From Planctomycetota bacterium (GTDB taxonomy: Bacteria; Planctomycetota; E44-bin39), in NCBI GenBank assembly GCA_004376375.1, contig SOJX01000023.1, forward strand, positions 36,013 through 100,012: 64,000 bases of DNA. Reading direction: 5' to 3'. The position numbers and the translations under genes are program-made. Under the pieces are notes generated by a model. The model was not told the origin of the DNA. It ran no database searches and was given only the letters and a program-made list of their open reading frames with translations. Shown piece after piece: positions 16,592 through 38,918 of this stretch (the first letter of the stretch is position 1; every line of letters begins with the position of its first letter).

Positions 16592-16665
16592 GCGCCTGTT
16601 CTCAGTAGTTAGTCGTTAGTGATTAATAATATAGACTAACGACTAACCACTAACCACTAACAACC
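16592..16665. repeat. hairpin of AGTTAGTCGTTAGTG / CACTAACGACTAACC arrays in the 5-prime UTR of the acyl-CoA dehydrogenase gene
   Basis: Inverted arms around an AT-rich loop (TTAATAATATAG). Confidence 0.75.
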
Positions 16666-21721: not shown

Positions 21722-21890
21722 CATCGGTTATTGGTTATTGGTTATTGGTTATTGGTTAAAAATATGGGAAGCACCACGCCGGAAGGCGTGGTGACAATTG
21801 AGCGGGCGGGCTTGCCCGCCGTTAAAACAAAATTCGGGCGGGTCGCCGACCCGCCCAACACATAACGCGCGAAGCTCATTTGATTGGTGG

Positions 21891-22083: not shown

Positions 22084-22719
22084 ATGACGACAATGTTCGA
22101 GACTTACTACCGTTGCCCCCAGTGCGGCACGGCTTTCCAGAGCACGACCATAGGCTCCTGCGGGCACGCGGACAAATGGTCCGACCTCTGCCCCGACTTC
22201 TGGGGGGCCAGCCCCCGGATGTTTTTCGTCGCCTGCTGCCCCGACTGCGGCTACTGCGACTTCGCAAACGAGTTCGAGGACATGCCGCCCGAAACGGAAA
22301 CCGACGTGACGGACCCGGGGGGCGACATACTCGACCGCTACGTAAAAGCGTACGAACATGCCTTGAGCAGGAAAAAACCGGCGCGCCAGCTCGCCGATTA
22401 CGCGGTCCAGGTCGCGTGGTGCCGCCACGACGAGGATGACGACGCCGACTCGCCCACGCTGAAGAAATACCGCGAGGCAGCCGTCTTTCATTTCGAGGAA
22501 GCGCTGGGCGAGGGAGAGGTCGAAGAAGAGGAAATGCCCACCATTCACTACCTTATCGCCGAGTTCTCCCGCCAGAACGGCGATTTCGAGAAGGCGAAAA
22601 AACACCTCGACAAGATACCCGACGACGCGGGCATTGCCGAGGCAGCGCCCCACCTCCGCAAACATGCTGAAGCTGAAGATTCAGAACCCTACCGCCTGGG
22701 CGAGGAAAAAGCAGATTGA
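22084..22719 (+). CDS. zinc-ribbon-containing hypothetical protein (DUF2225-like)
   Basis: N-terminal CPQCG...CGH and CCPDCGYC motifs followed by a helical acidic domain. Confidence 0.5.
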   Translation: MTTMFETYYRCPQCGTAFQSTTIGSCGHADKWSDLCPDFWGASPRMFFVACCPDCGYCDFANEFEDMPPETETDVTDPGGDILDRYVKAYEHALSRKKPARQLADYAVQVAWCRHDEDDDADSPTLKKYREAAVFHFEEALGEGEVEEEEMPTIHYLIAEFSRQNGDFEKAKKHLDKIPDDAGIAEAAPHLRKHAEAEDSEPYRLGEEKAD

Positions 22720-22721
22720 AG

Positions 22722-22855
22722 AAAGTATGAAGGATGAAGGATAAAGGATGAAATTTATATTTAATAATTCTTAATTCATATTTCAGACTTCACACTTCTG
22801 CCTTCATACTTCAGCCTTCATACTTCATCCTTTCTTTACGGTTCGCGCTCTGAAT
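22722..22855. repeat. long hairpin of AGTATGAAGGATGAAGG / CCTTCATACTTCAT arrays between convergent genes
   Basis: AGTATGAAGGATGAAGGATAAAGGATGAAA ... CTTCATACTTCAGCCTTCATACTTCATCCTTTC around an AT-rich loop. Confidence 0.8.
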
Positions 22856-23099
22856 TTAATCGGTAGACGAAGGCGAGAATCTCCGCGATGACCTGGTAAA
22901 GCTCGTGCGGGATTTCAGTCTCCAGATCGAGCTTTGAAAGGACCGATGCGAGGTCCGCGTCCTCGTGCACAGGCACGCCGGCCTCGCGGGCTATCCGCAT
23001 AATCGCCTCCGCGACTATGCCCTTCCCTTTCGCGACGACGCGGGGGGCGGCGTCGCGTTCGGGCTCGTATCTGAGAGCTACGGCTACCTGTCTTTCCAT
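22836..23099 (-). CDS. FlhB C-terminal-domain-like small protein (YlqH-like)
   Basis: VAVALRYEPERDAAPRVVAKGKG...AEAIMRIAREAGVPVHEDADLA...ELYQVIAEILAFVYRL matches the FlhB/EscU C-terminal fold family. Start at ATG 23099. Confidence 0.75.
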   Translation of the reverse strand: MERQVAVALRYEPERDAAPRVVAKGKGIVAEAIMRIAREAGVPVHEDADLASVLSKLDLETEIPHELYQVIAEILAFVYRLNSEREP

Positions 23100-23182
23100 T
23101 GCGTATACCCGCAAAATAATCGGTACGACAGACATTTCTGTCTGTCGATTGCAGGGGCAAGGCATGCCTTGCCCCTACATTT

Positions 23183-24688
23183 TTACACGATAATATCTAT
23201 CAGTTGCAATCCCTCGGGCCCGCCGAAACCTTCGAGGAAACGCCTCGGCGGCGCTTCCGGGTCGCGCACGGCCGTGCGCACCTCGACCTCGTAACCGAGC
23301 TGCCGGAGCGCGCCCTCGAGAATGTATGCGCGCGTATCGAAAAGCGCCTTCGTCGCCTCGTCATCTACAATGAATCCGACGACGATGTTGCGCCGGTCCA
23401 TCACCACTTCGCCGAGCACGTCGCCGAGATACTCGAGCGACAGATCGATAACCGCCCTGCGCGGGGTTTCGTCATCGCCGGCTTCGCGGCCCCCGCGCCT
23501 GACGTTGAACCGCAGGCGAATGCAATCCTCGGCCGCGCCGAACGCAACGAGAAGCTGGGCGTAGCTGACGTCGTCGAGCGCCGCCGTCGCCGCCGCGTTC
23601 AAAGCCTTGACCGCCGCGAACCTGTCGGAAAGCCGATCGAGCTCTCCGTACGCCCGGGCAAGGGGCTTGAAGATTTCATACCGCGAAATCTCGAATTTCT
23701 CCCGGTCCTGGAGTAATCGGTGCGCGTCTTTCAATTCCGCCGGGCGAAGCTGCTTCAGGAGATTAACCAGGGCATCGCCGTCGGGCTTTTCCGCAATTAT
23801 CGCCGCGCGGACGTCTTTGCCGAGGACAGCCTTTCCCCCCGCTTCGCCTGCTTCCTGACCGGCTTCGGCAATCAGCTTCGCCGCCGCGGCGACAGCCTTG
23901 CCGAGCTCGACGAGCACCGGGTCTGATTTCAGAATGCCGCTTGCTATCGATTCGATCCCGGCCTGGAACGCCCGCGCCTGCTCGACAGCTCCGCCGCGCG
24001 CAAGGTTTGCAAGCTCTCCGGCCGTCCCCGCCTGCTCCAGAGTAACATGCAGGGCGTGAAGCCCGCCCGCAATCTCCTTTACGGCAGCGGTCTGCCCGAG
24101 CCCGGGAAAATGCGCCCGGTCGAGCGCGTTCGCAGCGTTACGCAGAACCCGTGCGGTTTCTCCCACGGGCCGTGCAAGGTCGGCCGCGGCCGCCACCAGG
24201 CGCGGGGTAAGCGGAATATTATTTTTTACCAGATACGCCGCCGCGGTCACCGCGGCGGGGAAATCGACCGGCGCATGCGCCGCAGCCGTTCGGACGGCCT
24301 CGATATTTTCCAGCGTCGCCGACGCGCCCGCGCGGTTGAGCGCTTCTACGATAACCAGGTTTTCGCGCGTCGGCTGCAGCCCCATATCGGCCAGAGCGGT
24401 CATAATCGTCCGCGGCGCGGCCGGCGCAGTCGCGTCGAGGGACGGGGCGACCGGCACAAGCGTAACACCGCCCCCGTCGCGCGGTTCAACGGCAAACTGC
24501 ACAAGTTCGCCTTCGGCGAGCGTGAACGGAACGGTCATTGAAAACGTGGCGCCGAAAAGGTTGACGAGGGGCTGACCGTCGGGCGAAATTCCGACGACGC
24601 GGCCGGTGACGGTCGAACCGATGTAGGCCGCCAGCGTGTCGGGCAGACCGCCCGGAGTTGGTGAAAATCCGAATGCAGATATATCCAT
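23183..24688 (-). CDS. Flg_hook-domain-like protein (FliK-like / YlqG-like), function unknown
   Basis: 501 aa, Ala-rich. The C-terminal segment VIDLSLEYLGDVLGEVVMDRRNIVVGFIVDDEATKALF resembles the hook-length-control C-terminal domain. Immediately upstream of the FlhB-C-like gene. Confidence 0.45.
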   Translation of the reverse strand: MDISAFGFSPTPGGLPDTLAAYIGSTVTGRVVGISPDGQPLVNLFGATFSMTVPFTLAEGELVQFAVEPRDGGGVTLVPVAPSLDATAPAAPRTIMTALADMGLQPTRENLVIVEALNRAGASATLENIEAVRTAAAHAPVDFPAAVTAAAYLVKNNIPLTPRLVAAAADLARPVGETARVLRNAANALDRAHFPGLGQTAAVKEIAGGLHALHVTLEQAGTAGELANLARGGAVEQARAFQAGIESIASGILKSDPVLVELGKAVAAAAKLIAEAGQEAGEAGGKAVLGKDVRAAIIAEKPDGDALVNLLKQLRPAELKDAHRLLQDREKFEISRYEIFKPLARAYGELDRLSDRFAAVKALNAAATAALDDVSYAQLLVAFGAAEDCIRLRFNVRRGGREAGDDETPRRAVIDLSLEYLGDVLGEVVMDRRNIVVGFIVDDEATKALFDTRAYILEGALRQLGYEVEVRTAVRDPEAPPRRFLEGFGGPEGLQLIDIIV

Positions 24689-25164
24689 CAGTCGCGTCCG
24701 CGTTTCATCCGGACCATGTAATCCTTGAAGCCGAAGCGCTCCCAGAATTTCTTCGTCTTTTCATTCAGGACGAGAGCGTTCAACTGAACGGTAACGGCGC
24801 CGTTATTCTCGAGTATCTTGAGCGCGTCCTCGATGAGGGCGGTGCCGAAGCCGAAACTCCGGACTTCCTTTATAACGAAAACGTTTGATATGTAACCGAT
24901 GCGCCTTGTCTTGAAAAACGGCGCATCCGTCACGCTCGAGATGGCAAAACCGAACGGTTTATCTTCCCACGTAATCAGCCTGATAAAGAGGTCGTTGCGC
25001 TTCATCTCGGCAAGGTAGAAATCGCGCGCGCTCCCCTGCCAGTCCGGAGCGGGGGTGAAGTCAGGCTCTATCTCGGATTTTTCCGCAAGGTATTCCCCCA
25101 CGAGGCCGATAAAAACATCTACCCGCTCTTCGGTAAGGTTGGTTATTACGGCTTCTCCCGCCAC
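24688..25164 (-). CDS. GNAT family N-acetyltransferase
   Basis: Acetyl-CoA binding motif RSFGFGTALI and overall GNAT layout. Confidence 0.8.
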   Translation of the reverse strand: MAGEAVITNLTEERVDVFIGLVGEYLAEKSEIEPDFTPAPDWQGSARDFYLAEMKRNDLFIRLITWEDKPFGFAISSVTDAPFFKTRRIGYISNVFVIKEVRSFGFGTALIEDALKILENNGAVTVQLNALVLNEKTKKFWERFGFKDYMVRMKRGRD

Positions 25165-25217
25165 CGTTTTACTCCATTCAGGTAATATCCAATAGTATCA
25201 GGATGAAGCCGCCCCGG

Positions 25218-25300
25218 CAAGCGAAAAGGAAGTGCTGGAGTGCTGGCGTGCTGGAGTGCTGGCGTGCTGGAGTGCTGGGGTGCTGGGGTGCTGGAGTTAG
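25218..25300. repeat. tandem array of nine (A/G)GTGCTGG octamers
   Basis: GTGCTGGAGTGCTGGCGTGCTGG and so on. The same unit appears in reverse complement at 10365-10430 and 40525-40560. Confidence 0.85.
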
Positions 25301-25305
25301 CGGCC

Positions 25306-25381
25306 GTGATTGCGCGGCGTTGATTAATTATGATTAAGACCAACGCGCCGCCGACCACACCCGCCACGCGGCCCCGCTAAC
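25306..25381. repeat. inverted pair of REP-like elements around TTAATTATGATTAAGACC
   Basis: GTTAGCGGCCGTGATTGCGCGGCGTTGA ... CAACGCGCCGCCGACCACACCCGCCACGCGGCCCCGCTAAC. Confidence 0.75.
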
Positions 25382-25411
25382 AAACCCACCAACGGCCAAC
25401 CACTAACGACC

Positions 25412-25447
25412 ATTAAAATACAACGCCCGGGAGCAGAGCTCCCGGGC
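25412..25447 (-). terminator. intrinsic terminator downstream of the LysM-protein gene
   Basis: GCCCGGGAGCAGAGCTCCCGGGC hairpin followed on the minus strand by a U-rich tract (GUUGUAUUUUAAUGG). Confidence 0.6.
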
Positions 25448-25484
25448 AGGTGCACAACACGTAAAGCAGTTACTTCTTCTTCGC

Positions 25485-27257
25485 TTACCAGCTCCGGTAA
25501 GGTTCTCTTTTGACTTCCGAAGCCTTCTTGACAGCCTTCTTCTTTTTCGGCGGCACAAGGATATCCTTCGGCGGCAGCTTGAGCTCCATGCCGATCTTCA
25601 GTATCTGCCCCTTCTTCAGGTTGTTGTACTTCGACAGGGCTTCGTGGTGTATGCCGCTCCCGTACTCTTTCCTGCAGATCACCCACAGGCTGTCACCGGG
25701 CTTTACTTTGTAGATTTTATCCTTCGGCTTCGGCGGCTTTGGTGCTTCCATTTCGGGAAACATCCGCCTCTGCCCGTCGAACTGAATGGGCACCAACGCT
25801 GACGGTCCCCCCCTGTTCTCAATCGCCGGGCCGGCCGGTGCCGCAGCCGGGTTCCAGGACGCGCCGCCGATGGCTGCGCGCTCGGTCTGGCGGATAACAC
25901 CGGTCACGCTGTTATCTTCCCCGGCAACGGTTTGCTCAATCTGCTGCTCCGGCATCTGCGCAAGGTCGGTCTCGCCCGGCGCGTTTGAAAAGAACGCGCG
26001 CGCGCCGAGAACAACCAGGACCAGGAACGCAATCGGCAATGCAACCAGCAGGGCCTGGCGGTAGCGCCGGCTCTTTCCGCGGGTTGAAGAAAGATAGTAT
26101 GCAATCCGGTTTACCGGGGTGGCGCCGGTTTCAACAGCGGCGCCTTTCGTTTCCGCTTGAGTCTCCTTTTCCGGCTCCGGTTTTTCGAGCTCAATAGTCG
26201 GCAGGCCGTCGAAAATCGGGTTGTCCTTGCTCAGGTCGCCGAGGCTGGTGAAGACCGAATCCGACTTGGAGCTGATCTCGGCGGCAGCTTCGGGCACGGC
26301 TTCGGGCGCCGCCGGCCTGGGCGCTTTCCTGGTCTGTATCGTTTCGATAATCGCGGTTATCTTCTTGTTGGCCCGCTCGTCAATCTGTTTCTTGTAACGG
26401 AAAATTTCGCGATCCCTTTCCGCAAGCATATCGCGCAGGCGCATGATTTCGCATTCGGCGTTCATACGCTCGGTCGTGCCGGCCCTGAGATTCCCCATCT
26501 CCATCTTCAGCTCGTCGAGCTCTCTGAGTATCGCAGACTTGGCCTGGGTCTCCATTTTCAGCTTTGATTCGAGCTCGTCCTTTATCCGGCGCTTCTCTTC
26601 GCGCTCCGCCTTGAGAATCTTGCGGGCCGTATCTTCCACCCTCGAACGCGCCTCCGCTTTCAGCCTTGCCTCGCGCTCCGCTCTGAGCTTTTTCTCATAT
26701 TCTTCCTTTATCACTTCCTCCTTCATGCCCGCCTGCTGCAGGGACGGCTCGCTGTTGACGGTATCGCGCAGGATATCATCAGGGAAAGTCGCCGTCCGCT
26801 GCCTGGCAAAAGCCTCGTCGGCCTTCTTCTTTGCAGCCGCACGCCTCGCTTTCGCACGCTCCGCGGCCTCGAACTTCTTCTTCCCGTCCACCGTTTTCGG
26901 CTTCGTTCTGCCCGCGCGTGCGGTGACGAGTCTGTTCTTCAACTTCTCTTCCCTGGGTCTGGGCAAACCATTCGGCGCCGACTCCTCGGGAAGCGGCAGA
27001 TCAGGCACCGTACCTTTCTTCTTCGAGGTCTTCGGCGTCGCGGTCGCCCCGGTTTTCCGCGGCCGGCGGGGCCTGGCCGTTTTTTTCATCTTCCCCGCAC
27101 CGGTCTTGTTGTTGATTTTCTTCCCCCGCCTTTTCTCGAGAATAGCCATTGCAGCGTCGAGAACGCTTTTCCGCTCATCGGCTGTCGCGCGTTCTCTCGG
27201 TTTCTTTCTTGCCGGCTTTCCTTTTTGTTCCGACAAAGCTTTAGTGTCCTGCCCCAC
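25485..27257 (-). CDS. LysM-domain membrane protein with basic N-terminus and long coiled-coil
   Basis: C-terminal LysM (YKVKPGDSLWVICRKEYG...ILKIGMELKLP), one TM helix, and an extended charged coiled-coil region. Confidence 0.65.
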   Translation of the reverse strand: MGQDTKALSEQKGKPARKKPRERATADERKSVLDAAMAILEKRRGKKINNKTGAGKMKKTARPRRPRKTGATATPKTSKKKGTVPDLPLPEESAPNGLPRPREEKLKNRLVTARAGRTKPKTVDGKKKFEAAERAKARRAAAKKKADEAFARQRTATFPDDILRDTVNSEPSLQQAGMKEEVIKEEYEKKLRAEREARLKAEARSRVEDTARKILKAEREEKRRIKDELESKLKMETQAKSAILRELDELKMEMGNLRAGTTERMNAECEIMRLRDMLAERDREIFRYKKQIDERANKKITAIIETIQTRKAPRPAAPEAVPEAAAEISSKSDSVFTSLGDLSKDNPIFDGLPTIELEKPEPEKETQAETKGAAVETGATPVNRIAYYLSSTRGKSRRYRQALLVALPIAFLVLVVLGARAFFSNAPGETDLAQMPEQQIEQTVAGEDNSVTGVIRQTERAAIGGASWNPAAAPAGPAIENRGGPSALVPIQFDGQRRMFPEMEAPKPPKPKDKIYKVKPGDSLWVICRKEYGSGIHHEALSKYNNLKKGQILKIGMELKLPPKDILVPPKKKKAVKKASEVKREPYRSW

Positions 27258-27271
27258 AGTTCATCCTCCTT

Positions 27272-28000
27272 TTATGCTACCAAAGGTTTTATCGTAGTCT
27301 TAGCGGAACCTGCCTTTCCTGCACGAGCCTTCCGGCCCCACGCATGTTCCAAACTAAAAACGGCAGCTCGCCCGTGCCCGGCTGCCTCTGAATTCCTGCT
27401 TTTATCCGTGCCCGAGAAAATCATCGTCCCTGCAGAATCGCATTCCTTGAACGTTCGAAGCGGAACAGAAAAAGGGATGCGGTCAATAAAGCGGTATAAC
27501 CTGAAACGCTCCCGCCTCAGGTCGAGAACCAGCATGACCTGGTTCGGACGGCGGAAATAACATTCATGCGTTACGGCATCAACATGCAGGGGATAAAGCC
27601 CGGTTTTCCTGGCCGCAAACCAGCCAAGCAACTGGCGGCCGCCCATTTTCAACTGGTTTGACTCGAAGGCTTCAAGAAATACGTCTTCACTGAAAAGGGG
27701 TGTGCGGCAAATGCCGTCGTCAGCATCCAGCAATACACTGGATGTAATCGAAAGCAGGTCGTTGCGCCGCCTTTCTTCAAAACGGCCGAGAAGTATGCCG
27801 TAAACAGCTCTGTCAGGCTGCAGGCTTGCAATCCTGTGAATTCTCTGAAGCAGAGGCTCAGAAAGGTAGGCCTGGACCGGGATATGCTGAAGGCGGGTGC
27901 CGGCACAACTGTCGGCACTCCGGTTAGTTATGTTCCTCATTTTCCCCCTCTCGCGGATCGGCAGAGACCGATTCCGAACCGAGAAACATCTTCCTCGCAC
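27272..28000 (-). CDS. hypothetical protein, possibly degenerate MPN/JAB-like
   Basis: Co-directional and adjacent upstream of the LysM gene. GILLGRFEE and LLGWFAARKTG loosely resemble an MPN scaffold lacking the His ligands. Low confidence. Confidence 0.3.
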   Translation of the reverse strand: MRGRCFSVRNRSLPIRERGKMRNITNRSADSCAGTRLQHIPVQAYLSEPLLQRIHRIASLQPDRAVYGILLGRFEERRRNDLLSITSSVLLDADDGICRTPLFSEDVFLEAFESNQLKMGGRQLLGWFAARKTGLYPLHVDAVTHECYFRRPNQVMLVLDLRRERFRLYRFIDRIPFSVPLRTFKECDSAGTMIFSGTDKSRNSEAAGHGRAAVFSLEHAWGRKARAGKAGSAKTTIKPLVA

Positions 28001-28136
28001 TACTTATTTTAGGTCGCCCGGGAGTATGGTCAAGTCAACAGATGTGTTTTTTTATACGCACGACATAACGCAAATGGAAATATATAGTTATAACAAGCAT
28101 ACCCCCGGATGATTTTTCAAATCACATTATTTTCCG

Positions 28137-28310
28137 TGCGCTGTCACAAAAAGTTCACTAATTATTCAGTTATTCAGTTACCCGGTTATTCAGTTATTCA
28201 GTTACCCGGTTATTCAGTTATTCAGTTAAAAATAAAACTGAATAACTGAATTACTGAATTACTGAATAACCAAAATAGCTGATAGCTGATAGCTGAACGC
28301 TGACAGCTCA
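28137..28310. repeat. hairpin of CAGTTATTCAGTTA / TAACTGAATAACTG arrays followed by a TAGCTGA tandem array
   Basis: Inverted arms 28137-28200 and 28215-28265. Then TAGCTGATAGCTGATAGCTGAACGCTGACAGCTCA. Confidence 0.8.
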
Positions 28311-28376
28311 TAATTATCTCTAAATACAAACTTATCGAACCCGAATAACGTCTGATAATAAGTATAAAGTTTTTGC

Positions 28377-28405
28377 TTGACAAGGATTGCAGAAAATGTT
28401 ATAAT
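28377..28405 (+). promoter_or_regulatory. consensus sigma-70 promoter (TTGACA-17-TATAAT) upstream of 28488-28952
   Basis: Perfect -35 and -10 hexamers with 17-nt spacing. A second TTGACA and a GCCGGCAA...TTGCCGGC hairpin sit in the leader. Confidence 0.55.
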
Positions 28406-28487
28406 TCGGTGGAAAATGAGTTGACAGGCCGGCAACGCGGGTCGTTTGCCGGCTGGCTGAACTGTGCGTCCTGAGAGGGAGAAGTAA

Positions 28488-28952
28488 ATGGTCGCGCCTC
28501 TGGCCGAAAATGCGTTCTATTTCAACGGCATAACGTCGCCGGGCAACAGCCCGAACGCAGCCCAGGTGGCGCAGTCTACGCAGACCACACCGGCGACTGC
28601 TGACCGGGTTGAAATCTCCAATGCGGCTGAAGACGTCCTCCGCGCGGCTACGGGAACGCCCAAAACGACTGAAAGCCCGCAAAGCAAGGCATCGACGGCT
28701 GAAAGTGCAAGCAGAATGCCGCCGCAGTCTTCTGTCGCGGCCCAGCAGCAGGTTGCGGACGAGACACGCGAACGGCAGGTGCGAAATATTTCCACAACAT
28801 ACAAGGTTGTCGGTGAATCCGACGACATTCAGTCCAACCTTATCGACCCCATCACCGGCGAAAACTTTTATCAGGCCCCGACCGACCAGACAGTTGTCGT
28901 CGAGGAGCAGGATATCGTCCTGGTCGGCCAGATTTTCGATTCGCTGATGTAG
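28488..28952 (+). CDS. hypothetical secreted/disordered protein, possibly FlgM-like
   Basis: Ser/Thr/Gln-rich N-terminal half and a DRVEISNAAEDVL segment reminiscent of FlgM. Flanked by a consensus promoter upstream and a clean intrinsic terminator downstream. Confidence 0.35.
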   Translation: MVAPLAENAFYFNGITSPGNSPNAAQVAQSTQTTPATADRVEISNAAEDVLRAATGTPKTTESPQSKASTAESASRMPPQSSVAAQQQVADETRERQVRNISTTYKVVGESDDIQSNLIDPITGENFYQAPTDQTVVVEEQDIVLVGQIFDSLM

Positions 28953-28985
28953 AGTTTCGATCACAATTCGCAGAAGCAATATAAA

Positions 28986-29011
28986 CCCGGAACAGGACTC
29001 CGGGTTTTTTT
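28986..29011 (+). terminator. intrinsic terminator downstream of 28488-28952
   Basis: CCCGGAACAGGACTCCGGG stem-loop followed by TTTTTTT. Confidence 0.7.
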
Positions 29012-29134
29012 ACAGCGTTATGAAAGAATTGTAACCGTCATGTCATGATTGCGGGCATATCAAAAAAAACCGTTGCAATCCGGGCTCCGGGTGATAATAT
29101 CGTAACTAATAGAACGCCTACAAACCGGATTTAA

Positions 29135-29821
29135 GTGAGTACTCGTGTGGCAATACTATTACCATGCCCGAAGTGCGGCAAACGCGTAAACCTTCAGAAC
29201 GAGTACGCTGGCAAAAAGTGGAAGTGCGCGGGCTGCAAGCTCAAATTCCGCGTACCGGACCCGAAGAGACACAAGCTCGGTTCCGTTAAATGCACCTGCG
29301 GAAGCATGATCGAGACGTGGGACGTTTTCGCAAAAGAGGGGGTATTCTGCCCGGGGTGCAAAAAAATCTACTCCTCCGGCAAGGCCTCAAAACTGCCGTC
29401 CATAATTCCCGTCGGGGGGAAGAAAAAGAAAGGAAAAGAAAAAAAGAAAAAGAAGGAAAAGAAAAAAGCACGTCCTTCCCCTGCCCCCGAAGTCCTGGAA
29501 ATCCCCGAGCTGGAAGTCGACGACGAAGACCTGCTGCTTAACGTGGAAGAGGAAGTGATAGACGGGGCGGAACTCCTGATCGAAAACGATCTGGAGCTTG
29601 CCGACGAAATCAAACTTGTTGAAAACATCGAGCATGTTGAAAACATCGAGCTTGTTGAAGACATCGAGCATGTTGAAAACATCCAGCTTGTTGAAGAGAT
29701 CGAGCTTGTTTCAGACGAACAGGAAAAGCTCCCGTTTCCCGACCGCCGCAGAGGCGCCCGCAGAAAAGGCGACAGGCGCAAGGGCGACCGCCGCAAAGGC
29801 GGCAGAAGGAAAAGCGAATAA
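29135..29821 (+). CDS. double zinc-ribbon protein with poly-Lys, acidic pentapeptide repeats and Arg-rich tail
   Basis: CPKCG...CAGC and CTCG...CPGC ribbons. Repeats of VENIEH/VEDIEL are encoded by six tandem 15-bp DNA repeats (29610-29710). C-terminal RRKGD repeats. Confidence 0.55.
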   Translation: MSTRVAILLPCPKCGKRVNLQNEYAGKKWKCAGCKLKFRVPDPKRHKLGSVKCTCGSMIETWDVFAKEGVFCPGCKKIYSSGKASKLPSIIPVGGKKKKGKEKKKKKEKKKARPSPAPEVLEIPELEVDDEDLLLNVEEEVIDGAELLIENDLELADEIKLVENIEHVENIELVEDIEHVENIQLVEEIELVSDEQEKLPFPDRRRGARRKGDRRKGDRRKGGRRKSE

Positions 29822-30035
29822 GAATTATGAAGTATGAAGTATGAAGGCTGAAGTATGAAAAAGAATTGTAAATTGAGAATTGTAGATTGAGAATTGCAAA
29901 TTGGAAATTGTCAATACTCAATTTCCAATACTCAATTCGCAAACGGAAAGGACGAATTAAGAATTATTAAATATAAATTTTATCCTTCATCCTTCATACT
30001 TCATACTTCATACTTTATCCTTCATCCTTTGTTTA
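29822..30035. repeat. nested double hairpin: outer ATGAAGTATGAAGG arms, inner AATTGAGAATTGTAGATTGAG arms
   Basis: Outer arms 29825-29855 and 29970-30035. Inner arms 29860-29905 and 29905-29945. Directly upstream of the GH lipoprotein gene. Confidence 0.8.
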
Positions 30036-30047
30036 AAGAGGTGTAAC

Positions 30048-31112
30048 ATGCAAAAACGTCTTCTTCTCCCCGTTCTGCTTGTACTTGTTTTCCTTCTCAG
30101 CACCGGAGCCTGCAAAGACAAGAAAAAGACGCCGTTCTTCCCGATATCGCTGACGGTAACGCCGCTCGACAACCCCACGCTTCCATCACGCGGGTATTTC
30201 ATGGGAATGCTGCCCAATCCGGCGACGGGGTCGGACTATGATATCTCGACCACGCTTGCCGCGCAGTACTGCGACTGGACGCCGATATGGGGCACGCCGT
30301 CGCCTTTCTGGGAAATGGCAACCGACATCGGAGGCGGCTGGGGCGATATCTTCGTCGACCAGTTCTGCCGCGCAAAAGGCATGTTCCCGCTCATGCACTT
30401 GTCGTTCATGGACGCGGGGATGATGCTCGCGCTACCGCCCGAGCTTGCAAGCGCTACGCTCGAGTTGCCTGCATGGCGGACGGCCTACAAGGCGGCGGCG
30501 ATCGCGGTCGTAAAAGCCGGACGGCCCAAGTACTTCTCGGTCGGTAACGAAGTAAACCGCTGGTTCGAGACCTACGGCACGGACCCCGGCAATTCGAACG
30601 GCTTCCAGCATTTCGTAAGCCTGTACGAGGAAGTCTACGACGAGGTAAAGGCCCTCTCCCCCGACACGCAGGTCTTCTGCACATTTGCAAGAGAAATCGT
30701 CGACAACAACTCCGAAGCCGACGTCCTGACCGTACTCAACATGTTCAACTCCGACAAAATGGACATGGTTATGCTGACTACATACCCGTACGCACTCGCG
30801 GGCGTGAACAATGTCAGCGACCTGGCGAATGATTACTACTCGAGCGTTATTCCCGCCGCGTTCCAGTCCAAGCCGTTCGGTTTCAGCGAGGCCTGCTGGA
30901 CATCCCTCGCTCCCTTCGGCGGCGAGCAGGGCCAGGCTGACTTCATAAACGAGGTCGTGACGCGGCTGACCGTGGACCAGTCTCTGTACTTTCAGTTTTT
31001 CGGCTGGCCGTGGCTGCACAACCTCGACGACGTGGTCGGCGCAGGCCTGATTATGAAGGACGGCACGGAGAAACTCGGCTGGCTCGCATGGCAGGCGCTC
31101 GCGGGGTCGTAG
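30048..31112 (+). CDS. lipoprotein, clan GH-A-like glycoside hydrolase
   Basis: Signal peptide plus lipobox STGAC. Candidate acid/base motif VGNEVN and nucleophile context FGFSEACW. Confidence 0.5.
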   Translation: MQKRLLLPVLLVLVFLLSTGACKDKKKTPFFPISLTVTPLDNPTLPSRGYFMGMLPNPATGSDYDISTTLAAQYCDWTPIWGTPSPFWEMATDIGGGWGDIFVDQFCRAKGMFPLMHLSFMDAGMMLALPPELASATLELPAWRTAYKAAAIAVVKAGRPKYFSVGNEVNRWFETYGTDPGNSNGFQHFVSLYEEVYDEVKALSPDTQVFCTFAREIVDNNSEADVLTVLNMFNSDKMDMVMLTTYPYALAGVNNVSDLANDYYSSVIPAAFQSKPFGFSEACWTSLAPFGGEQGQADFINEVVTRLTVDQSLYFQFFGWPWLHNLDDVVGAGLIMKDGTEKLGWLAWQALAGS

Positions 31113-31174
31113 AGCACGGCTATTACGAAACAGGATTTGTCTTTCACTTTCAGTCAAACACTAAAGAACACGCC

Positions 31175-31480
31175 ATGAGAAAACTTGTTATTATATTAGC
31201 GGCAATCGTATCACTCTCACTGCTTGCCGGCTGCACCGATAATCCGTATTCAGAAGGTAAGGCACTCGGCATAAAACATGCCGAAATGATCATCAAGTCA
31301 GGCAAAGTGGACAACGCGGTAATGGAAGCAGACATCAACAAGTATAGTGCAAAATACGAAAACAACGAAATAGCGAAAAGAGCATTCAACAAAGGCTATA
31401 TGGAGGCAATGGAATCCATGATGGGCGAAATGATGAAAGGCATGGAAGAGGCAACGAAAAAGGAAATGATGTCGAAATAA
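31175..31480 (+). CDS. small lipoprotein (101 aa)
   Basis: MRKLVIILAAIVSLSLLAGC lipoprotein signal. The track ORF from 31010 is longer, but ATG 31175 fits the signal peptide. Confidence 0.5.
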   Translation: MRKLVIILAAIVSLSLLAGCTDNPYSEGKALGIKHAEMIIKSGKVDNAVMEADINKYSAKYENNEIAKRAFNKGYMEAMESMMGEMMKGMEEATKKEMMSK

Positions 31481-31546
31481 GGTGAGTAATCCTCCGCCAA
31501 TAATCATGAAACATAAAATCGGGACGGCTCCTGACCCGTTCCAACA

Positions 31547-31575
31547 ACGCGCCGGACATTACCGGCGCGTTTTTA
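31547..31575 (+). terminator. intrinsic terminator downstream of the small lipoprotein gene
   Basis: ACGCGCCGG-ACATT-ACCGGCGCGT stem-loop followed by TTTT. Confidence 0.65.
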
Positions 31576-31595
31576 ATCAATAAAAAGACGAACAT

Positions 31596-32063
31596 TCAGA
31601 ACCGCGACCCGGACAAAACCCACCACAGTAAAAAAAATGTCCAAAACGCAAGCGGAATGCCAACAATGTAAAACAATGCTTGCCCGGACGCCCTTGCAGA
31701 AACCACAATCAGTTTCCTGACACTCGTCGGTCCCCTATCCAGATTCACTCCCCACAGAATCACCGCGCACGACAGAAAAGCGGTTGAATAGAAAACAAGC
31801 AGTGCGAGCAAACTCCATAAATCGGACGAACCCGGAGCGGCAAGAATCACGCAGGCAGAACAGATCAGAGCAAACACTATCATTATCAGCGCTTTTACTG
31901 CACCTTGAGAACGGGGCATATCGTATTGCTTTTTGAAAAAAGACGAAACGCGAAGTAACGAAACCGGTACGCTTATTAAAAGAGCTACAACGAACACTCC
32001 AAGTACAGGGTCCTCTGTGAACCTGTCAAAACGGAAGTAGGAATAACCGAACAGTGTTATCAT
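31596..32063 (-). CDS. integral membrane protein, hypothetical
   Basis: Four predicted TM helices. No recognised family. Confidence 0.45.
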   Translation of the reverse strand: MITLFGYSYFRFDRFTEDPVLGVFVVALLISVPVSLLRVSSFFKKQYDMPRSQGAVKALIMIVFALICSACVILAAPGSSDLWSLLALLVFYSTAFLSCAVILWGVNLDRGPTSVRKLIVVSARASGQALFYIVGIPLAFWTFFLLWWVLSGSRF

Positions 32064-32114
32064 AACATTACAGCGCTCCGTAGCCGGACCGGGCAGCCTT
32101 CCTTCCCGTTCTAC

Positions 32115-32558
32115 TTAGAATGGTTTCGACCACAGGTCTTTAGGCTCCATCCCGTATTTCGGAATGTTCCTGTAAAGAACCGATGTCGGGTCGACCTTGA
32201 GGACCATAAGCTGCGGGTCATCAACGCCGCCGGGGAAAGCGAACGTGAACGCGTCAATCCAGATATCTTCCTTCGCCTCTTTTGTGTCGATCTGCTCCAC
32301 GTTTCCGTAAACCCTCAGGTCCTGCTGCTCGAGCAGATATGCCACGCATATTTTCGGATTATCCGTAAGCTGCTTCACCTTTGCGCTCGACTTATGAGTT
32401 GCAAACCAGAGTGTGAAATCGTCCTCGATTTTCGCGGTGGTCATCACGCGCACATGGGGCGTATCGCCATCGACCGTACCTACATGCACAAGCGGATTCG
32501 CCCGGGCGAACTCCAGGGCTTCATTTCTCATTTCACCTGACATGCTTATTCCTTTCAT
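32115..32558 (-). CDS. pyridoxamine 5-prime-phosphate oxidase-like FMN-binding protein
   Basis: Split-barrel PNPOx-like pattern (VHVGTVDGDTPHVRVM). Confidence 0.7.
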   Translation of the reverse strand: MKGISMSGEMRNEALEFARANPLVHVGTVDGDTPHVRVMTTAKIEDDFTLWFATHKSSAKVKQLTDNPKICVAYLLEQQDLRVYGNVEQIDTKEAKEDIWIDAFTFAFPGGVDDPQLMVLKVDPTSVLYRNIPKYGMEPKDLWSKPF

Positions 32559-32581
32559 CTCAACTTCGAACTTGAGGGATT

Positions 32582-34852
32582 TTACTTAACGCCCCTTATC
32601 GCCGCAAGAACCTTTTCCGGCGTAATCGGCAAATCCCGGATGCGGGCGCCGATGGCGGATTCGACCGCGTTCGCAATCGCGGCCGCCGTCGGGATCAGCC
32701 CGGCCTCGCCGATACCCTTCGCACCGTACGGACCCTCCGGGTCGTCGGTCTCGATAAAAATAAGCTCCATCGGCGGCATGTCGCGTGCCATGACGAGTTT
32801 ATAATCGAGCAGGTTGGGATTGAGCAGTTTGCCGTCCTCGAAAACCATGTCTTCCATCAACGCGTAGCCGATGCCCTGTGCGATACCGCCGTGGAGCTGG
32901 CCCTCGATGCCCTGCCGGTTAATAACTTTTCCGACGTCGTGCGCGGCAACGAACTTCAGAATCTTCACCTTCCCGGTTTCGGGATCGACCTTGACACGGC
33001 ACGCATGCGTCCCGTATGCATAGGTTGACGAAACGTTGCCTTTAAGAGTTTTCATATCCTGCAATTCGTTCGGCGGGTCGTAATAGTAGGTCGCCATCGG
33101 GTGTTTGCCCTGCCGGCGAAAGTGCATCGAGCGAGCGACCTTGTCAACCTTCATCCCGTCTTCGGGCGAGCCGCCTTCGGGATAAAAAACACCTTTCTCG
33201 AAAACAACTTTTCCCGGCTCGATTTTCATCTTCTTCGCGGCAGCCTCGATAAGCTGTTCCTTCACCATCCTGCATGCACGGAGCGTTGCGTTGCCGACGA
33301 TAAACGTAGTGCGCGAGGCATGCACGCCCGCGTCCCACATCCCGTAATCGGTATCGCTGTTCAGAATGGAAATATTTTCAAGCGGCACGCCGAGCTCTTC
33401 CGAGGCGATCATCGCCATCGCGGTGTCGGTCCCCTGCCCTATCTCGGTCGCGCCGGTGATAATCACGACGCGGCCGAAGTCGTCCACCTTGACCGTGACG
33501 CCGGAGCCGTCGGAAAGGTAGATGCGCGCGCCGCCACCGACGTGTATCATGTTCGCAAACCCGACGCCTTCCCACTCCTCGAGCGGTTTGTCGTAATCAA
33601 TCGCCTCGACCGCGGCCTCGGTGCACTCCTTCATGCCGCATGTAGTAATTTTCAGGTCCTGCGGCGTTGTCTCGCCCGGCTCGTTGAAGTTCCGCCTGCG
33701 CAATTCCAGCGGGTCTATACCCGCGACCTTCGCAAGCTCGTCGAGGTTGGACTCTATCGCAAAGGTCGCCTGCGGATTGCCGTAACCGCGAAACGCGCCC
33801 GCGTATGCGTTATTCGTGTAGACCATCTTCGCTTTCATGCGGACGTTTTCGACCTTATAGAGCGAGCTGACCGGGTTCGCCATGATGTGCGGCGTCGTCG
33901 CGCCCCAGGAAGAGTTCGAGCCGTTGTCGAGGACGGCATCGAAAATCCGCGCCGTGAGTTTGCCGTCTTTCGTGCAGCCGTGGGAAACCGTGATAACCGC
34001 GGGCTGGCGGGTTACCGAAGCAATAAACTCTTCCTCGCGGTCGAACGCGATGCGCACGGGCCGCCCCGTTTTCTTTGCAAGCAGGCAAGTAATGATTTCG
34101 TATGGATATGTATCCAGCTTCGAGCCGAACGCGCCGCCGATTACCATCTGCTTGATGCGGATATGCGCGGCCGGGATGCCGAGGACGCGGCCGAGGTCGC
34201 GCTGCATCAGGTGCGGTATCTGCGTCGTCGAATAAACCGTGAGCCGGTCCGGCCCGTCCCACTGCGCGGCCGCGAAACACGGCTCCATGCAGCAGTGGGC
34301 GACGTACTGAAGTCTGTAGGTCGAAGTGACTTTGAAGTCGGCCTCTTCGAGCGCTTTTTCCGGATCGCCGTGAACGAAGTCGTAACGGTGCTTGAGAATA
34401 TTGTCAGGCGCATGCTCGTGGAGCACAGGTGCATTTTCCATGCAGGCGAATTCTATATCGCATACATTCGGCAAATCCTCGTACTCGACTTCGATTGCAT
34501 TAATCGCATCCTCAGCCGTTTCAGGATTCACCGCTGCGACGGCTGCAATCTCGTCGCGGTACGAACAGACCTTTCCTTTTTTGAGCGCAGGGTTATCCTG
34601 GAGAAAACCGAGGTTTTTCACATGCGGGTAAGTCTCGGCCGTGATAACCGCGACGACGCCGGGAATCTTTTCCGCCTTCGATATGTCGATTGTGAAGTTT
34701 GCATGTGCCCGTTTGCTGCGAAGAATTTTCCCCTCGAGCATTCCCGGCAGTCTGAGGTCATGCCCGAAAATCGCCGCCCCCGTCGCCTTCTCGCGCGCAT
34801 CAACCTTCGGCACGCGTTTGCCGATAACGTTGTATTCGTTATTCTCAGTCAT
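32582..34852 (-). CDS. xanthine dehydrogenase family molybdopterin-binding large subunit
   Basis: 756 aa with aldehyde oxidase/xanthine dehydrogenase a/b hammerhead and Moco-binding regions. Confidence 0.9.
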   Translation of the reverse strand: MTENNEYNVIGKRVPKVDAREKATGAAIFGHDLRLPGMLEGKILRSKRAHANFTIDISKAEKIPGVVAVITAETYPHVKNLGFLQDNPALKKGKVCSYRDEIAAVAAVNPETAEDAINAIEVEYEDLPNVCDIEFACMENAPVLHEHAPDNILKHRYDFVHGDPEKALEEADFKVTSTYRLQYVAHCCMEPCFAAAQWDGPDRLTVYSTTQIPHLMQRDLGRVLGIPAAHIRIKQMVIGGAFGSKLDTYPYEIITCLLAKKTGRPVRIAFDREEEFIASVTRQPAVITVSHGCTKDGKLTARIFDAVLDNGSNSSWGATTPHIMANPVSSLYKVENVRMKAKMVYTNNAYAGAFRGYGNPQATFAIESNLDELAKVAGIDPLELRRRNFNEPGETTPQDLKITTCGMKECTEAAVEAIDYDKPLEEWEGVGFANMIHVGGGARIYLSDGSGVTVKVDDFGRVVIITGATEIGQGTDTAMAMIASEELGVPLENISILNSDTDYGMWDAGVHASRTTFIVGNATLRACRMVKEQLIEAAAKKMKIEPGKVVFEKGVFYPEGGSPEDGMKVDKVARSMHFRRQGKHPMATYYYDPPNELQDMKTLKGNVSSTYAYGTHACRVKVDPETGKVKILKFVAAHDVGKVINRQGIEGQLHGGIAQGIGYALMEDMVFEDGKLLNPNLLDYKLVMARDMPPMELIFIETDDPEGPYGAKGIGEAGLIPTAAAIANAVESAIGARIRDLPITPEKVLAAIRGVK

Positions 34853-36292: not shown

Positions 36293-36363
36293 CAATTATA
36301 ATAGGCCAATGCAGGTCTTCCAGGTTCTTAACTTATAACTTTTAACTTAAAACTTATAACTGA

Positions 36364-38313: not shown

Positions 38314-38430
38314 TTATTCCTCCCAGCGCACAACAAACTTGTTAAGTCCAGACGCGGCGACAAGACGACAAGGAGACCCGGCGACAAGGAGACAAGGAGA
38401 AATATTCTATTTTAAGAATTTCAAGGCTCG

Positions 38431-38820: not shown

Positions 38821-38918
38821 TTTCTCTCCGAAAGCCTTGTTTTATTTTCGCCTTGTCTCCTTGTCTCCTTGTCAACTTGTCTGAGCGCTCAACACATTAT
38901 CGTCCAAACAGGCAGAAC

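Follow-up and report, generated by a model that had tools for sequence, protein, structure and literature searches.

Do the eight small genes packed into positions 22084-29821 of a 64-kb window (the whole stretch of DNA analysed here) of an uncultured Planctomycetota genome form one functional system, and does the repeat tract inside the last of them act as a slippage or contingency locus, as proposed in an earlier note on this sequence? All eight ORFs are present at the coordinates given in that note, and the gene identities and unit boundaries are established here (Table 1). We put at roughly 0.6 the probability that the interval comprises five unrelated, independent transcription units rather than a single system. 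These units would be a DUF2225 zinc-ribbon/TPR gene; an operon of GNAT, fliK2-like and flhX-like genes; an operon of a degenerate MPN gene and a LysM membrane protein gene; a lone gene for a divergent FlaG-family protein, whose consensus sigma-70 promoter and terminator are both conserved; and a lone gene for a clade-restricted zinc-ribbon protein of 224 or 228 aa. The block does not appear to be one system because the units lie on opposite strands, possess their own promoters and terminators and are interrupted by unrelated genes in the related lineage L003, namely one for an AP endonuclease, one for a PMT_2-like protein of 507 aa and a pair that separates the FlaG-like gene from the zinc-ribbon gene. 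The block is kept only in a narrow clade of metagenome-assembled Planctomycetota genomes: each orphan protein has just 2 to 5 homologues among 5.8 billion clusters, a search of GTDB representative genomes turned up no FlaG-like orthologue, and the block is absent from the nearest Planctomycetota genomes (70% identity in a neighbouring decarboxylase gene). The description of the block as rich in zinc ribbons applies to two of the eight proteins, and the ribbon module occurs nowhere else in the window. Homology searches of the ORFs bore out the DUF2225, GNAT and LysM labels and removed the FlgM label (see below).

Table 1 Coordinates of the features discussed in the text (positions within the window)
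Feature	Position	Strand	Evidence
DUF2225-family protein, N-terminal zinc ribbon then TPR-like C-terminus	22084..22719	+	Pfam DUF2225 E=5.6e-18
Inverted heptamer arrays (AAGGATG... / ...CTTCATA) between convergent genes	22716..22832		Tandem Repeats Finder
flhX-like gene, stand-alone FlhB C-terminal domain	22836..23165	-	Bac_export_2 E=1.7e-22
fliK2-like gene, 501 aa, weak FliK C-terminal (Flg_hook) domain	23183..24688	-	Flg_hook E=1.6e-4
GNAT acetyltransferase	24688..25164	-	Acetyltransf_1 E=1.7e-11
Tandem array of AGTGCTGG, 8.4 copies, upstream of GNAT operon	25231..25297		Tandem Repeats Finder
Terminator-like hairpin past LysM gene	25424..25448	-	11-bp stem, 9 GC pairs, then T-rich tail
590-aa LysM protein	25485..27257	-	LysM 29.9 bits, cut-off 20.9
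Degenerate MPN/JAB-like protein, 222 aa	27272..27940	-	JAB E=0.008
Conserved upstream element (TTTCCGTGC-N4-GTCAC), divergent intergenic region	28120..28159		Invariant block, three-lineage alignment
Lineage-specific arrays: TTATTCAG x8, its reverse complement x4, ATAGCTG x5	28162..28312		Tandem Repeats Finder
Consensus sigma-70-type promoter of FlaG-like gene	28377..28405	+	TTGACA-17-TATAAT, 12/12 matches, TG extension
154-aa divergent FlaG-family protein	28488..28952	+	Homologue P0007 above Pfam FlaG threshold
Intrinsic terminator of FlaG-like gene	28983..29011	+	Stem AAACCCGGA/TCCGGGTTT, then T7 run
Putative extended -10 promoter of zinc-ribbon gene (TTGCAA-16-TGaTAATAT)	29073..29100	+	Read from sequence
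Zinc-ribbon charge-block protein	29135..29821	+	228 aa from GTG at 29135
Two zinc ribbons, C11/C14/C31/C34 and C53/C55/C72/C75	29165..29359	+	Cysteines conserved
Poly-Lys block, net charge +11	29414..29470	+	Length differs between lineages
Six 18-bp units DEIKLV ENIEHV ENIELV EDIEHV ENIQLV EEIELV	29603..29710	+	Codon register
Basic tail PDRRR GARRK GDRRK GDRRK GGRRK, 15-bp period	29738..29812	+	Tandem Repeats Finder and codon register
Composite palindrome of nested heptamer arrays	29822..30029		Tandem Repeats Finder

The DUF2225 protein, whose C-terminus yields weak TPR matches, has an orthologue encoded at the equivalent position in L003. The inverted arrays downstream of its gene fold into a hairpin (RNA fold z=-4.0) that looks like a bidirectional terminator; Rfam 'miRNA' matches in this region were rejected as artefacts of the hairpin. 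In the second unit, the stop codon of the GNAT gene overlaps the start codon of the fliK2-like gene (TGATG, read directly from the sequence), so that the GNAT gene is translationally coupled to the fliK2-like/flhX-like pair, and the same GNAT/fliK2-like arrangement is found in L003. The earlier note had named this pair Flg_hook/FlhB-C. Its FlhB-C half holds, with a further match to TIGR00789 flhB_rel (103 bits, E=5.7e-30) that stays below the 117-bit cut-off; the Flg_hook half is weak but consistent, as the window protein matches at residues 406-469, near the C-terminus, and its L003 orthologue at the corresponding position (E=0.09), in both cases below the Pfam threshold. Homology of the flhX-like protein to L003, where the product was called as 88 aa, starts at residue 23, and the ATG at 23099 is probably the conserved start, for a product of 87 aa. 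The pair resembles fliK2-flhX of Pseudomonas putida which, together with flaG, are class IV flagellar genes (bioRxiv 10.1101/2021.08.29.457346): as in that operon, and with FlhX (HP1575) of Helicobacter pylori as a further counterpart, a FliK-C-terminal-like gene is directly followed by a gene for a stand-alone FlhB C-terminal domain. Unlike the P. putida pair, the one in the window is preceded by the coupled GNAT gene, lies outside any flagellar cluster and has a sub-threshold Flg_hook score.

The product of the LysM gene begins with a basic N-terminus (+31), continues through a charged middle that resembles a coiled coil and one transmembrane segment (the single hydrophobic segment, a 19-mer at residues 401-419) and ends in a C-terminal LysM domain, in agreement with its original description as a basic coiled-coil membrane protein, and has orthologues in L003 and L004. 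The MPN-like gene lies 14 bp upstream. The suspicion that this partner is a degenerate MPN protein gained substance: the match to JAB is weak but consistent, the L004 orthologue (65% identity) scores 23.3 bits, above the Pfam threshold of 22.5, and the best matches in a PDB profile search were all Rpn8/Rpn11. The JAMM catalytic histidines are missing, GWFAARK being aligned to GWYHSHP. In this respect the protein is similar to MPN- pseudo-enzymes such as Rpn8/PSMD7, in which the catalytic HxH is likewise replaced, and the profile alignment covers the entire MPN core. It differs from them in being bacterial and paired with a LysM membrane protein, with no detectable active MPN+ partner and just one orthologue above the Pfam threshold.

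The lone gene downstream of the divergent intergenic region had been read as encoding a disordered FlgM-like protein. This identity was rejected, given that neither the window protein nor its four homologues matched any FlgM model at E<=10, and is replaced here by that of a divergent FlaG-family member. The 62% identical homologue P0007 matches Pfam FlaG with 27.9 bits (cut-off 23.8) over positions 21-100 of the 101-position profile; the window protein itself produced no direct FlaG profile match. Like FlaG (PF03646), it is small and low-complexity in its N-terminal half but, unlike FlaG, its gene does not adjoin fliD, fliS or flagellin genes and is preceded by a sigma-70 consensus promoter, and the protein carries an additional, invariant TADRVEISNAAED motif. 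The perfect promoter and terminator previously ascribed to this gene are indeed present. In a three-lineage alignment, L003 and L004 retain TTGACA-17-TATACT along with the flanking bases, and L001 and L006 share the terminator, albeit with changes in its loop. The lineage-specific arrays further upstream sit between conserved blocks of the promoter region, and L003 and L004 lack them at the corresponding point of the alignment.

For the zinc-ribbon protein, a start at GTG 29147 (224 aa) appears more likely than GTG 29135, as it matches the NCBI call and the homologues. The putative promoter of the gene, nearly identical in L001, is below the threshold of the promoter scanner. The two Cys4 ribbons, the poly-Lys stretch in the middle and the RRKGD tail reported earlier are all there, and the eight cysteines are conserved in the full-length alignment rows. 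In the window protein, the ribbons give only generic Pfam signals (Zn_ribbon_4/5/8/DZR), below gathering thresholds. The module, matched by 620 representative proteins with 1 to 9 ribbons each, resembles the Zn_ribbon_4/5 (MJ0042-type) modules that open multidomain proteins in phyla including Planctomycetota and Myxococcota. They share the pattern CPxC-(N16)-CxxC over about 38 residues, with AGK at the centre and VP at the end; the ribbon is N-terminal and frequently present in several copies, and a linker and membrane segments usually come after it. A transmembrane segment is predicted in 87 of the 149 best of these 620 proteins. The double ribbon is a generic module in wide use, and most relatives have it ahead of transmembrane segments. 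By contrast, the second ribbon of the window protein has a CxC knuckle, and its C-terminus consists of positive, negative and positive charge blocks confined to this clade instead of transmembrane segments or other domains. At the poly-Lys block, the L004 gene contains an assembly gap (run of N). The acidic block comprises 87 residues with a net charge of -29 and contains the six hexapeptides. The basic tail (net charge +11; 15-bp period at 29740-29805) is conserved in length and sequence. L004 keeps it, and so does the syntenic orthologue P0008 (48% identity), alone among the representative ribbon-module proteins in having a DRRK tail. Synonymous to non-synonymous codon changes relative to L001 are 6:1 in the tail and 10:7 in the N-terminus, and the tail is held constant by purifying selection. 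Tentatively, judging from composition and paralogue architectures, the tail could be the working end that binds a polyanion (nucleic acid or acidic membrane lipid), with the ribbons docking a partner and the acidic block serving as a tolerant spacer or intramolecular competitor.

Could the block nevertheless be a dispersed accessory flagellar locus, in which the zinc-ribbon, DUF2225 and MPN-LysM proteins partner FlhX, FliK2 and FlaG in the control of flagellar export or placement? The FlhB-C, FliK-like and FlaG-family genes, three of the eight, are related to flagellar export and fall within 6 kb; their P. putida counterparts share a class, as noted above, and FlaG of Campylobacter jejuni is a filament-length regulator that competes with FliS-flagellin for the FlhA export gate (PMC11536152). 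Furthermore, gene order is kept down to about 50-65% protein identity, and the FlaG-like gene again lies next to the zinc-ribbon gene in L001, L004 and L006. However, descent alone predicts synteny among close relatives, the 64-kb window contains no core flagellar gene, and the features that separate the units, including the insertions in L003, speak against a common locus, as does the sigma-70 promoter of the FlaG-like gene; reading by eye upstream of the GNAT operon, we saw no GCCGATAA-type sigma-28 motif. We regard this scenario as unlikely and prefer five independent units. For the zinc-ribbon gene in particular, the JGI name given to the orthologue P0002 would make the product a YacG-like DNA gyrase inhibitor, and the protein is small, zinc-binding and endowed with basic segments; yet it has no YacG Pfam match at E<=0.1, its relatives match YacG only in fragments of 13-25 residues and match dozens of other zinc-ribbon families just as weakly, and a PDB search returns generic ribbons only, which makes this assignment very improbable. 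More improbable still is a spurious or decaying low-complexity frame. Low-complexity sequence makes up more than half of the protein, the L006 version is truncated past the first ribbon and an antisense ORF overlaps the gene, but there are syntenic orthologues in four lineages, down to 48% identity, in addition to the promoter-like site shared with L001, the conserved cysteines and tail, and the excess of synonymous changes in the latter.

The tract within the acidic block had been described as 15-bp repeats encoding pentapeptides. This is incorrect: VENIE(H/L) has six residues and Tandem Repeats Finder reports a period of 18 (5.3 copies, 29615-29710, score 150), the 15-bp period belonging to the tail. 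The units are imperfect (87% matches). Compared across four lineages, the hexapeptide count is 6 in the window, 4 in L001, about 3 in L003/L005 and about 2 in L004. Related lineages thus differ by whole units, and therefore the tract does lengthen or shorten the acidic spacer that separates the ribbons from the basic tail, as originally anticipated. Because units 2-5 form a subfamily specific to the window, mutually identical at 15-17 of 18 bases and sharing an Asn codon that L001 lacks, the comparison points to a recent 36-bp duplication in the window lineage. The variation anticipated within a population was not observed: in three independent assemblies of one population the 228-aa product is the same, and L002, which derives from a different sample, runs collinear with the window for 14,483 bases (zero gaps, 99.97% identity), with every array in these 14.5 kb equal in length to its counterpart. 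At the assembly level, the repeat is invariant within the population.

We therefore had to weigh whether the tract is a contingency locus, in which frequent slippage would generate selected heterogeneity in spacer length within the population. The repeats are tandem and in frame, as in bacterial coding minisatellites and the simple-sequence contingency loci of pathogens, where units also stand head-to-tail within an ORF; unit identity is 87%, copy number is lineage-dependent, the recent duplication fits such a process, and short tandem arrays are common throughout the genome. Unlike the loci of pathogens, however, the 18-bp unit is a multiple of three, therefore no on/off frameshift is possible; the units have diverged, the assemblies of the population do not vary, and the product appears to be disordered and cytoplasmic rather than a surface antigen, with no signal peptide or surface features. 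Similar in-frame charged repeats also occur in housekeeping genes such as NusA, as well as in IF-2 and other window genes. The contingency reading is accordingly improbable, and we favor, with about the same probability as the five-unit reading, an ordinary coding repeat undergoing evolutionary slippage in a disordered spacer, not a phase-variation switch. Such a coding minisatellite would gain or lose whole hexapeptides through replication slippage or unequal recombination over evolutionary time, which would only lengthen or shorten the disordered acidic spacer.

Finally, the genome is packed with intergenic 7-8-bp tandem arrays. A composite palindrome begins one base past the zinc-ribbon stop codon (RNA fold -72.2 kcal/mol, z=-8.9) and is absent from L001. 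The closest counterparts of such arrays are the short tandemly repeated heptamers of cyanobacteria and the TAACTGA heptamers of Beggiatoaceae (PMC4679880). Abundant intergenic arrays are a feature in common, and one unit family of the window (AACTGAAT/TTATTCAG) contains AACTGA. The present genome differs in using many different units instead of one, in arrays that are often inverted pairs forming long hairpins, and in its host, a planctomycete, a phylum not named in the abstract of the Beggiatoaceae study. These intergenic arrays may be worth more than the repeat finding itself.

The repeat tract of the zinc-ribbon gene consists of 18-bp units and not, as the earlier note proposed, of 15-bp units encoding pentapeptides: VENIE(H/L) has six residues, the period is 18 with 5.3 copies according to Tandem Repeats Finder, and in the codon register the tract comprises six units (DEIKLV ENIEHV ENIELV EDIEHV ENIQLV EEIELV). 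The 15-bp period belongs to the basic tail of the same protein. The number of hexads does vary among related metagenome lineages: there are six in the window, four in L001 (87% nucleotide identity to the window), about two in L004 (~76%) and about three in L005 (a single lineage with L003, at ~70-75%). Units 2-5 of the window are identical to one another in 15-17 of 18 bases and share an Asn codon that is absent from L001, and the 12-residue gap in the alignment with L001 corresponds to two units, which points to a 36-bp duplication in the window lineage. The length of the poly-Lys stretch also differs, by 3-4 residues. The L004 contig has an assembly gap (a run of N) exactly at the expected position of this A-rich tract, a sign that in that sample it may be difficult to assemble or heterogeneous. 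In the basic tail the unit number is constant across all lineages, and relative to L001 there are six synonymous codon changes and one non-synonymous change, indicating that both its length and its sequence are under purifying selection. The zinc-ribbon gene is real and under selection; in its product the ribbon domain precedes three disordered blocks, charged positively, negatively and positively in turn. Gains and losses of whole units are tolerated and build up in the acidic block, but not in the basic tail.

Slippage at this site, as envisaged in the earlier note, has thus occurred over evolutionary time, but nothing in the data marks the tract as a contingency locus. The unit length is divisible by three, so every gain or loss keeps the reading frame and the tract cannot work as an on/off switch; the copies are, moreover, imperfect, and high-frequency slippage is not expected. 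At the assembly level, the repeat does not vary within the population: the same 228 residues are encoded by the JGI 139-kb contig, by a JGI contig from another sample of the same population (L002) and by a Logan assembly, and the alignment of L002 with the window is gap-free over 14,483 bases at 99.97% identity, including all intergenic arrays in that stretch. A protein scan of public metagenome contigs and a search for the exact 32-mer beside the repeat gave no matches and added no population variants. Charged repeats of a comparable kind are also found in frame elsewhere in the window, namely a 42-bp unit present in 3.1 copies in the C-terminal extension of NusA (encoding the 14-residue acidic EDTKAETEDAPGTE), an RGG-rich tail and a Pro/Glu-rich tail in two further genes, and a poly-Lys stretch in IF-2; such repeats are a general trait of this genome and nothing peculiar to the zinc-ribbon gene.

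Judging from homology and the NCBI call, translation of the zinc-ribbon protein probably starts at a GTG codon, giving 224 aa. An extended -10-like site of its own precedes the gene and is conserved in L001. The ribbon cysteines (C11/C14/C31/C34 and C53/C55/C72/C75) are conserved and fit the CxxC-N(16-19)-CxxC spacing. Pfam searches with the ribbons yielded only generic Zn_ribbon_4/5/8/DZR signals, near or under threshold; the window protein itself does not match the MJ0042-type Zn_ribbon_4/5 profiles at E<=0.1, and its relatives do so at 14-36 bits, around the cut-off of ~30. Likewise, only generic zinc fingers and ribbons were retrieved from the PDB. The YacG annotation (PF03884) that JGI assigns to the orthologue P0002 is unsupported, the window protein having no match to the profile at E<=0.1. 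Searched exhaustively with HMMER, the first 95 residues matched 620 representative proteins at E<=0.001, most of which match a single ~38-residue ribbon and contain 1 to 9 such ribbons each; a transmembrane segment is predicted in 87 of the top 149. The full double ribbon was found in a few proteins with terminal transmembrane segments (one with a CD225 domain, one with WD40 repeats) and in P0008, the syntenic orthologue from L003/L005, which is only 48% identical yet retains the acidic hexad-like region and the GDRRKGDRRKGDRRR tail. Among the 149 ribbon relatives and 1.4 Mb of fetched loci, the (GDRRK)n tail is confined to syntenic orthologues. A left-handed beta-helix was considered for the hexads and rejected, given that there is no Hexapep Pfam match and that the small-residue position is occupied by glutamate. 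In L006, an ENA contig, behind the 3' end of the FlaG-like gene and its terminator comes a zinc-ribbon gene with 89% identity over 38 residues, which then runs on into an unrelated acidic C-terminus resembling the end of an ABC ATPase, the contig terminating in a short tandem array; this copy is either rearranged or decaying, or the product of a chimeric assembly.

Coordinates of features in and around the block (window positions unless a related contig or residues are named)
Feature	Position	Remarks
GNAT stop/fliK2-like start overlap	24684-24692	TGATG
LysM domain	residues 516-562	LysM protein
Conserved intergenic element	28120-28159	TTTCCGTGC-N4-GTCAC-N6-TTCA
Its counterpart in L004	about 3490-3530
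Its counterpart in L003	about 9715-9750
FlaG-like gene	28488..28952 (+)	154 aa
Best-conserved FlaG-like segment	28590-28630	residues 35-51
Zinc-ribbon gene	29135..29821 (+)	probable GTG start at 29147
Two Cys4 ribbons	residues 1-93	net charge +14
Poly-Lys	residues 94-112	net charge +11
Acidic block including hexads	residues 113-199	net charge -29
Basic tail	residues 200-228	PDRRR GARRK GDRRK GDRRK GGRRK, net charge +11
Hexads, codon register	29603-29710	six units
Hexads, Tandem Repeats Finder	29615-29710	period 18
15-bp period of the tail	29740-29805
Assembly gap in L004	about 4700-4710	at poly-Lys
L006 segment	1-553	FlaG-like 3' end and zinc-ribbon gene
NusA repeat	11685-11816	42-bp unit
IF-2 poly-Lys stretch	12330-12430
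Gene with RGG-rich tail	54160-54963	repeat at 54169-54253
Gene with Pro/Glu-rich tail	3848-4915	repeat at 3858-3907
Nested inverted arrays downstream of the zinc-ribbon gene	29822-30029	folded segment 29815-30040
Nested inverted arrays between convergent genes	22716-22832	folded segment 22712-22840
Arrays after the conserved element	28162-28312
Other arrays (examples)	860-906, 9056-9086, 10360-10425, 14763-14863, 16634-16661, 21726-21758, 25231-25297, 36329-36361, 38350-38400, 38851-38882, 40374-40595, 43470-43563, 49699-49743, 54014-54046	7-8-bp units
Variable spot	29821-32595	window
Variable spot in L001	1415-2683
Variable spot in L004	4981-5483
Variable spot in L003	13633-14205

All eight ORFs previously noted in the block are present and most of their labels stand, the repeat unit and the FlgM assignment being the parts that do not. 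The block comprises five separate units and not one system. Four related metagenome lineages show the same order, DUF2225 / flhX-fliK2-GNAT / LysM-MPN / FlaG-like / zinc-ribbon gene, and in L003 an AP endonuclease gene, a 507-aa PMT_2-like gene and two further genes, one of them for an ankyrin-repeat protein, are inserted between the units. The window (G+C ~55%) contains, 5' of the block, genes for MlaD-domain and HEAT-repeat proteins followed by those for NusA, IF-2, acyl-CoA dehydrogenase and carboxyltransferase, then a short ORF that looks like a biotin-carrier domain and a gene homologous to those of decarboxylase beta-subunits; on the 3' side lie a xanthine-dehydrogenase-like operon and genes for a prepilin peptidase, VWA proteins, a Ser/Thr kinase and M16 peptidases. 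The spread of the block appears narrow: the orphan proteins have 2 to 5 homologues each among 5.8 billion protein clusters, a scan of the GTDB representative genomes with the FlaG-like alignment detected no orthologue, and the Planctomycetota genomes closest by the neighbouring decarboxylase gene (70% identity) lack every block gene. The NCBI label for the 154-aa (E3J72_03000) and 222-aa (E3J72_02995) proteins, from a metagenome-assembled Planctomycetota genome, is hypothetical protein. A defence-system reading of the block was dropped because none of nine proteins matched a PADLOC component of known anti-phage defence systems.

Among the individual units, the DUF2225 gene (PF09986, E=5.6e-18, 65.9 bits against a cut-off of 21) stands alone on the strand opposite to that of its neighbours. 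In the next unit, the stop codon of the GNAT gene (PF00583, E=1.7e-11, 44.9 bits against 20.7; no specific NCBIfam equivalog was reached) overlaps the start codon of the fliK2-like gene, which lies directly upstream of flhX. The FlhB-C label of the latter holds, with a Bac_export_2 match at E=1.7e-22 (profile positions 261-335 of 335) and a match to TIGR00789 (flhB_rel) at E=5.7e-30 (103 bits, under the cut-off of 117); the conserved core of 87 aa falls within the ~80-93 aa of FlhX proteins, homologues of the FlhB C-terminal domain without the membrane domain. The Flg_hook label of the fliK2-like protein is less firm, the PF02120 match being sub-threshold (E=1.6e-4, 21.9 bits against 29.8), and a still weaker one (E=0.09, 13 bits) lies at the corresponding position of the L003 orthologue; a PDB sequence search gave no matches. 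The gene pair resembles the fliK2-flhX pair described in Pseudomonas putida (bioRxiv 10.1101/2021.08.29.457346), with the difference that a GNAT gene is added here. The order GNAT-fliK2-flhX is also found in L003, which makes the acetyltransferase gene a conserved member of this operon in the clade.

A gap of 14 bp separates the MPN-like and LysM genes, and a strong hairpin terminator lies after the pair. The LysM label holds (PF01476, 29.9 bits against 20.9), and the suggestion of a degenerate MPN-like partner finds support through an orthologue. The match of the window protein to JAB (PF01398) is weak (E=0.008, 16.4 bits against 22.5), but the 65% identical L004 orthologue scores 23.3 bits, over the cut-off, a profile of three orthologues matched best only Rpn8/Rpn11 chains in the PDB (E ~0.2), and GWFAARK aligns to the catalytic GWYHSHP, with both histidines absent from all three. 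Together, these observations point to a probable MPN domain without the JAMM histidines, the metal-binding motif E...HxH...S..D being missing from the orthologues. AlphaFold2 models built on shallow alignments had a mean pLDDT of 48 for the FlaG-like and 37 for the MPN-like protein, neither being usable. In the divergent intergenic region between the MPN-like and FlaG-like genes, we noticed an element that is invariant in three lineages within unrelated flanks and directly after which the window arrays are inserted; it may serve the MPN-LysM operon as promoter or operator.

The 154-aa protein had been read as FlgM-like, but neither it nor four homologues match FlgM (PF04316) at E<=10, and NCBIfam gave no match. 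Instead, its 62% identical homologue P0007 matches FlaG (PF03646) at 27.9 bits (cut-off 23.8), the match spanning positions 21-100 of the 101-position profile; the window protein itself has no direct match, so that its FlaG membership is by transitivity. The best-conserved part, P-x-TADRVEISNAAED-x-L followed by AESASRMP, lies outside the region matching the FlaG profile. The first of these motifs superficially resembles the V-x-L-S segment of FlgM proteins, which presumably misled the earlier reading. The sole PDB match of the FlaG-like profile is a chance one, to a protease-site tag. The perfect promoter claimed for this gene is confirmed (TTGACA-17-TATAAT with a TG extension); conservation in L004 and L003, where the protein is 71% and 65% identical, respectively, extends over its -35 and -10 boxes and ~40 bp upstream, and the terminator is conserved in L001 and L006. 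A riboswitch in the 5' leader was dropped from consideration as the fold is no stabler than that of shuffled sequence (z=+0.2). FlaG of Campylobacter caps filament length by competing with FliS-flagellin complexes for FlhA (PMC11536152); flagellin, fliD and fliS are all absent from the Pfam-scanned ORFs of the 64-kb window.

With respect to the function of the zinc-ribbon protein, a tentative reading, at a probability of about 25%, is that the basic tail binds a polyanion while the ribbons dock a partner and the acidic block serves as a spacer or an intramolecular competitor. The polyanion would be either nucleic acid or an acidic membrane, the tail in the latter case replacing the transmembrane anchor of most proteins with this ribbon module. 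The neighbouring FlaG-like, FliK2-like and FlhX-like genes invite the alternative of a flagellar role, which we deem unlikely because the units are independent, L003 has insertions between them, and the Pfam-scanned ORFs of the window include no core flagellar gene.

Apart from the binding and docking reading, one may speculate, as something less likely still, that the zinc-ribbon protein founds an undescribed class of charge-block scaffolds in which an electrostatic tail replaces the transmembrane anchor. Such a tail would promote self-coacervation or hold the ribbons on nucleic acid or an acidic membrane, reach or auto-inhibition would be adjusted through slippage in the acidic hexads, and the protein might act with the adjacent FlaG-like protein, taken as strongly expressed; independently, the same speculation would have this planctomycete lineage acquire a dense system of intergenic 7-8-bp arrays resembling cyanobacterial heptamer repeats.

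Tandem arrays with units of 7 or 8 bp and 3.5 or more copies number 29 in the window (4.5 per 10 kb), compared to a median of 0 in 85 other fetched loci and 0 to 1.2 per 10 kb in the close relatives L001, L003 and L004. Those examined lie between genes, many as inverted pairs that fold into long hairpins, and a small vocabulary of units (for example CTTCATA/GAAGTAT, ACTTCAAC, TAAGGGA/TCCCTTA) recurs at unlinked sites. The nested inverted arrays that begin one base past the zinc-ribbon stop codon, absent from L001, fold at -72 kcal/mol (z=-8.9), and those between two convergent genes fold with z=-4.0; both are probably terminators or transcript-end structures. No Rfam family reached its gathering score anywhere in the window, and the sub-threshold 'microRNA' matches correspond to inverted arrays. 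Similar heptamer repeats have been reported in cyanobacteria and Beggiatoaceae, Planctomycetota not being among the hosts named in the abstract (PMC4679880). Directly 3' of the zinc-ribbon gene is a variable spot, occupied in the window by genes for 354-aa, 130-aa and 155-aa proteins without Pfam matches and a PNPOx-like gene, and in the relatives by a gene for a methionine- and glycine-rich protein of 146-151 aa, accompanied in L001 by an IS200-like Y1 transposase gene (Y1_Tnp, E=1.6e-5).

The block is an ordinary lineage-specific neighbourhood that combines known types of accessory flagellar genes, with varying support, and orphan proteins, and it carries little weight for general biology. 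Its gene labels are corrected to a probable FlaG-family protein instead of FlgM, a pair like fliK2-flhX and a probable MPN protein that lacks the catalytic residues. For genome scans, the case is a caution that an in-frame repeat in a disordered, charge-rich protein does not amount to a contingency locus without population data. Were the scaffold speculation true, the zinc-ribbon protein would be a compact natural charge-patterned disordered scaffold with a spacer whose length evolves by slippage. The dense heptamer and octamer arrays in a planctomycete may merit more attention than the original finding.
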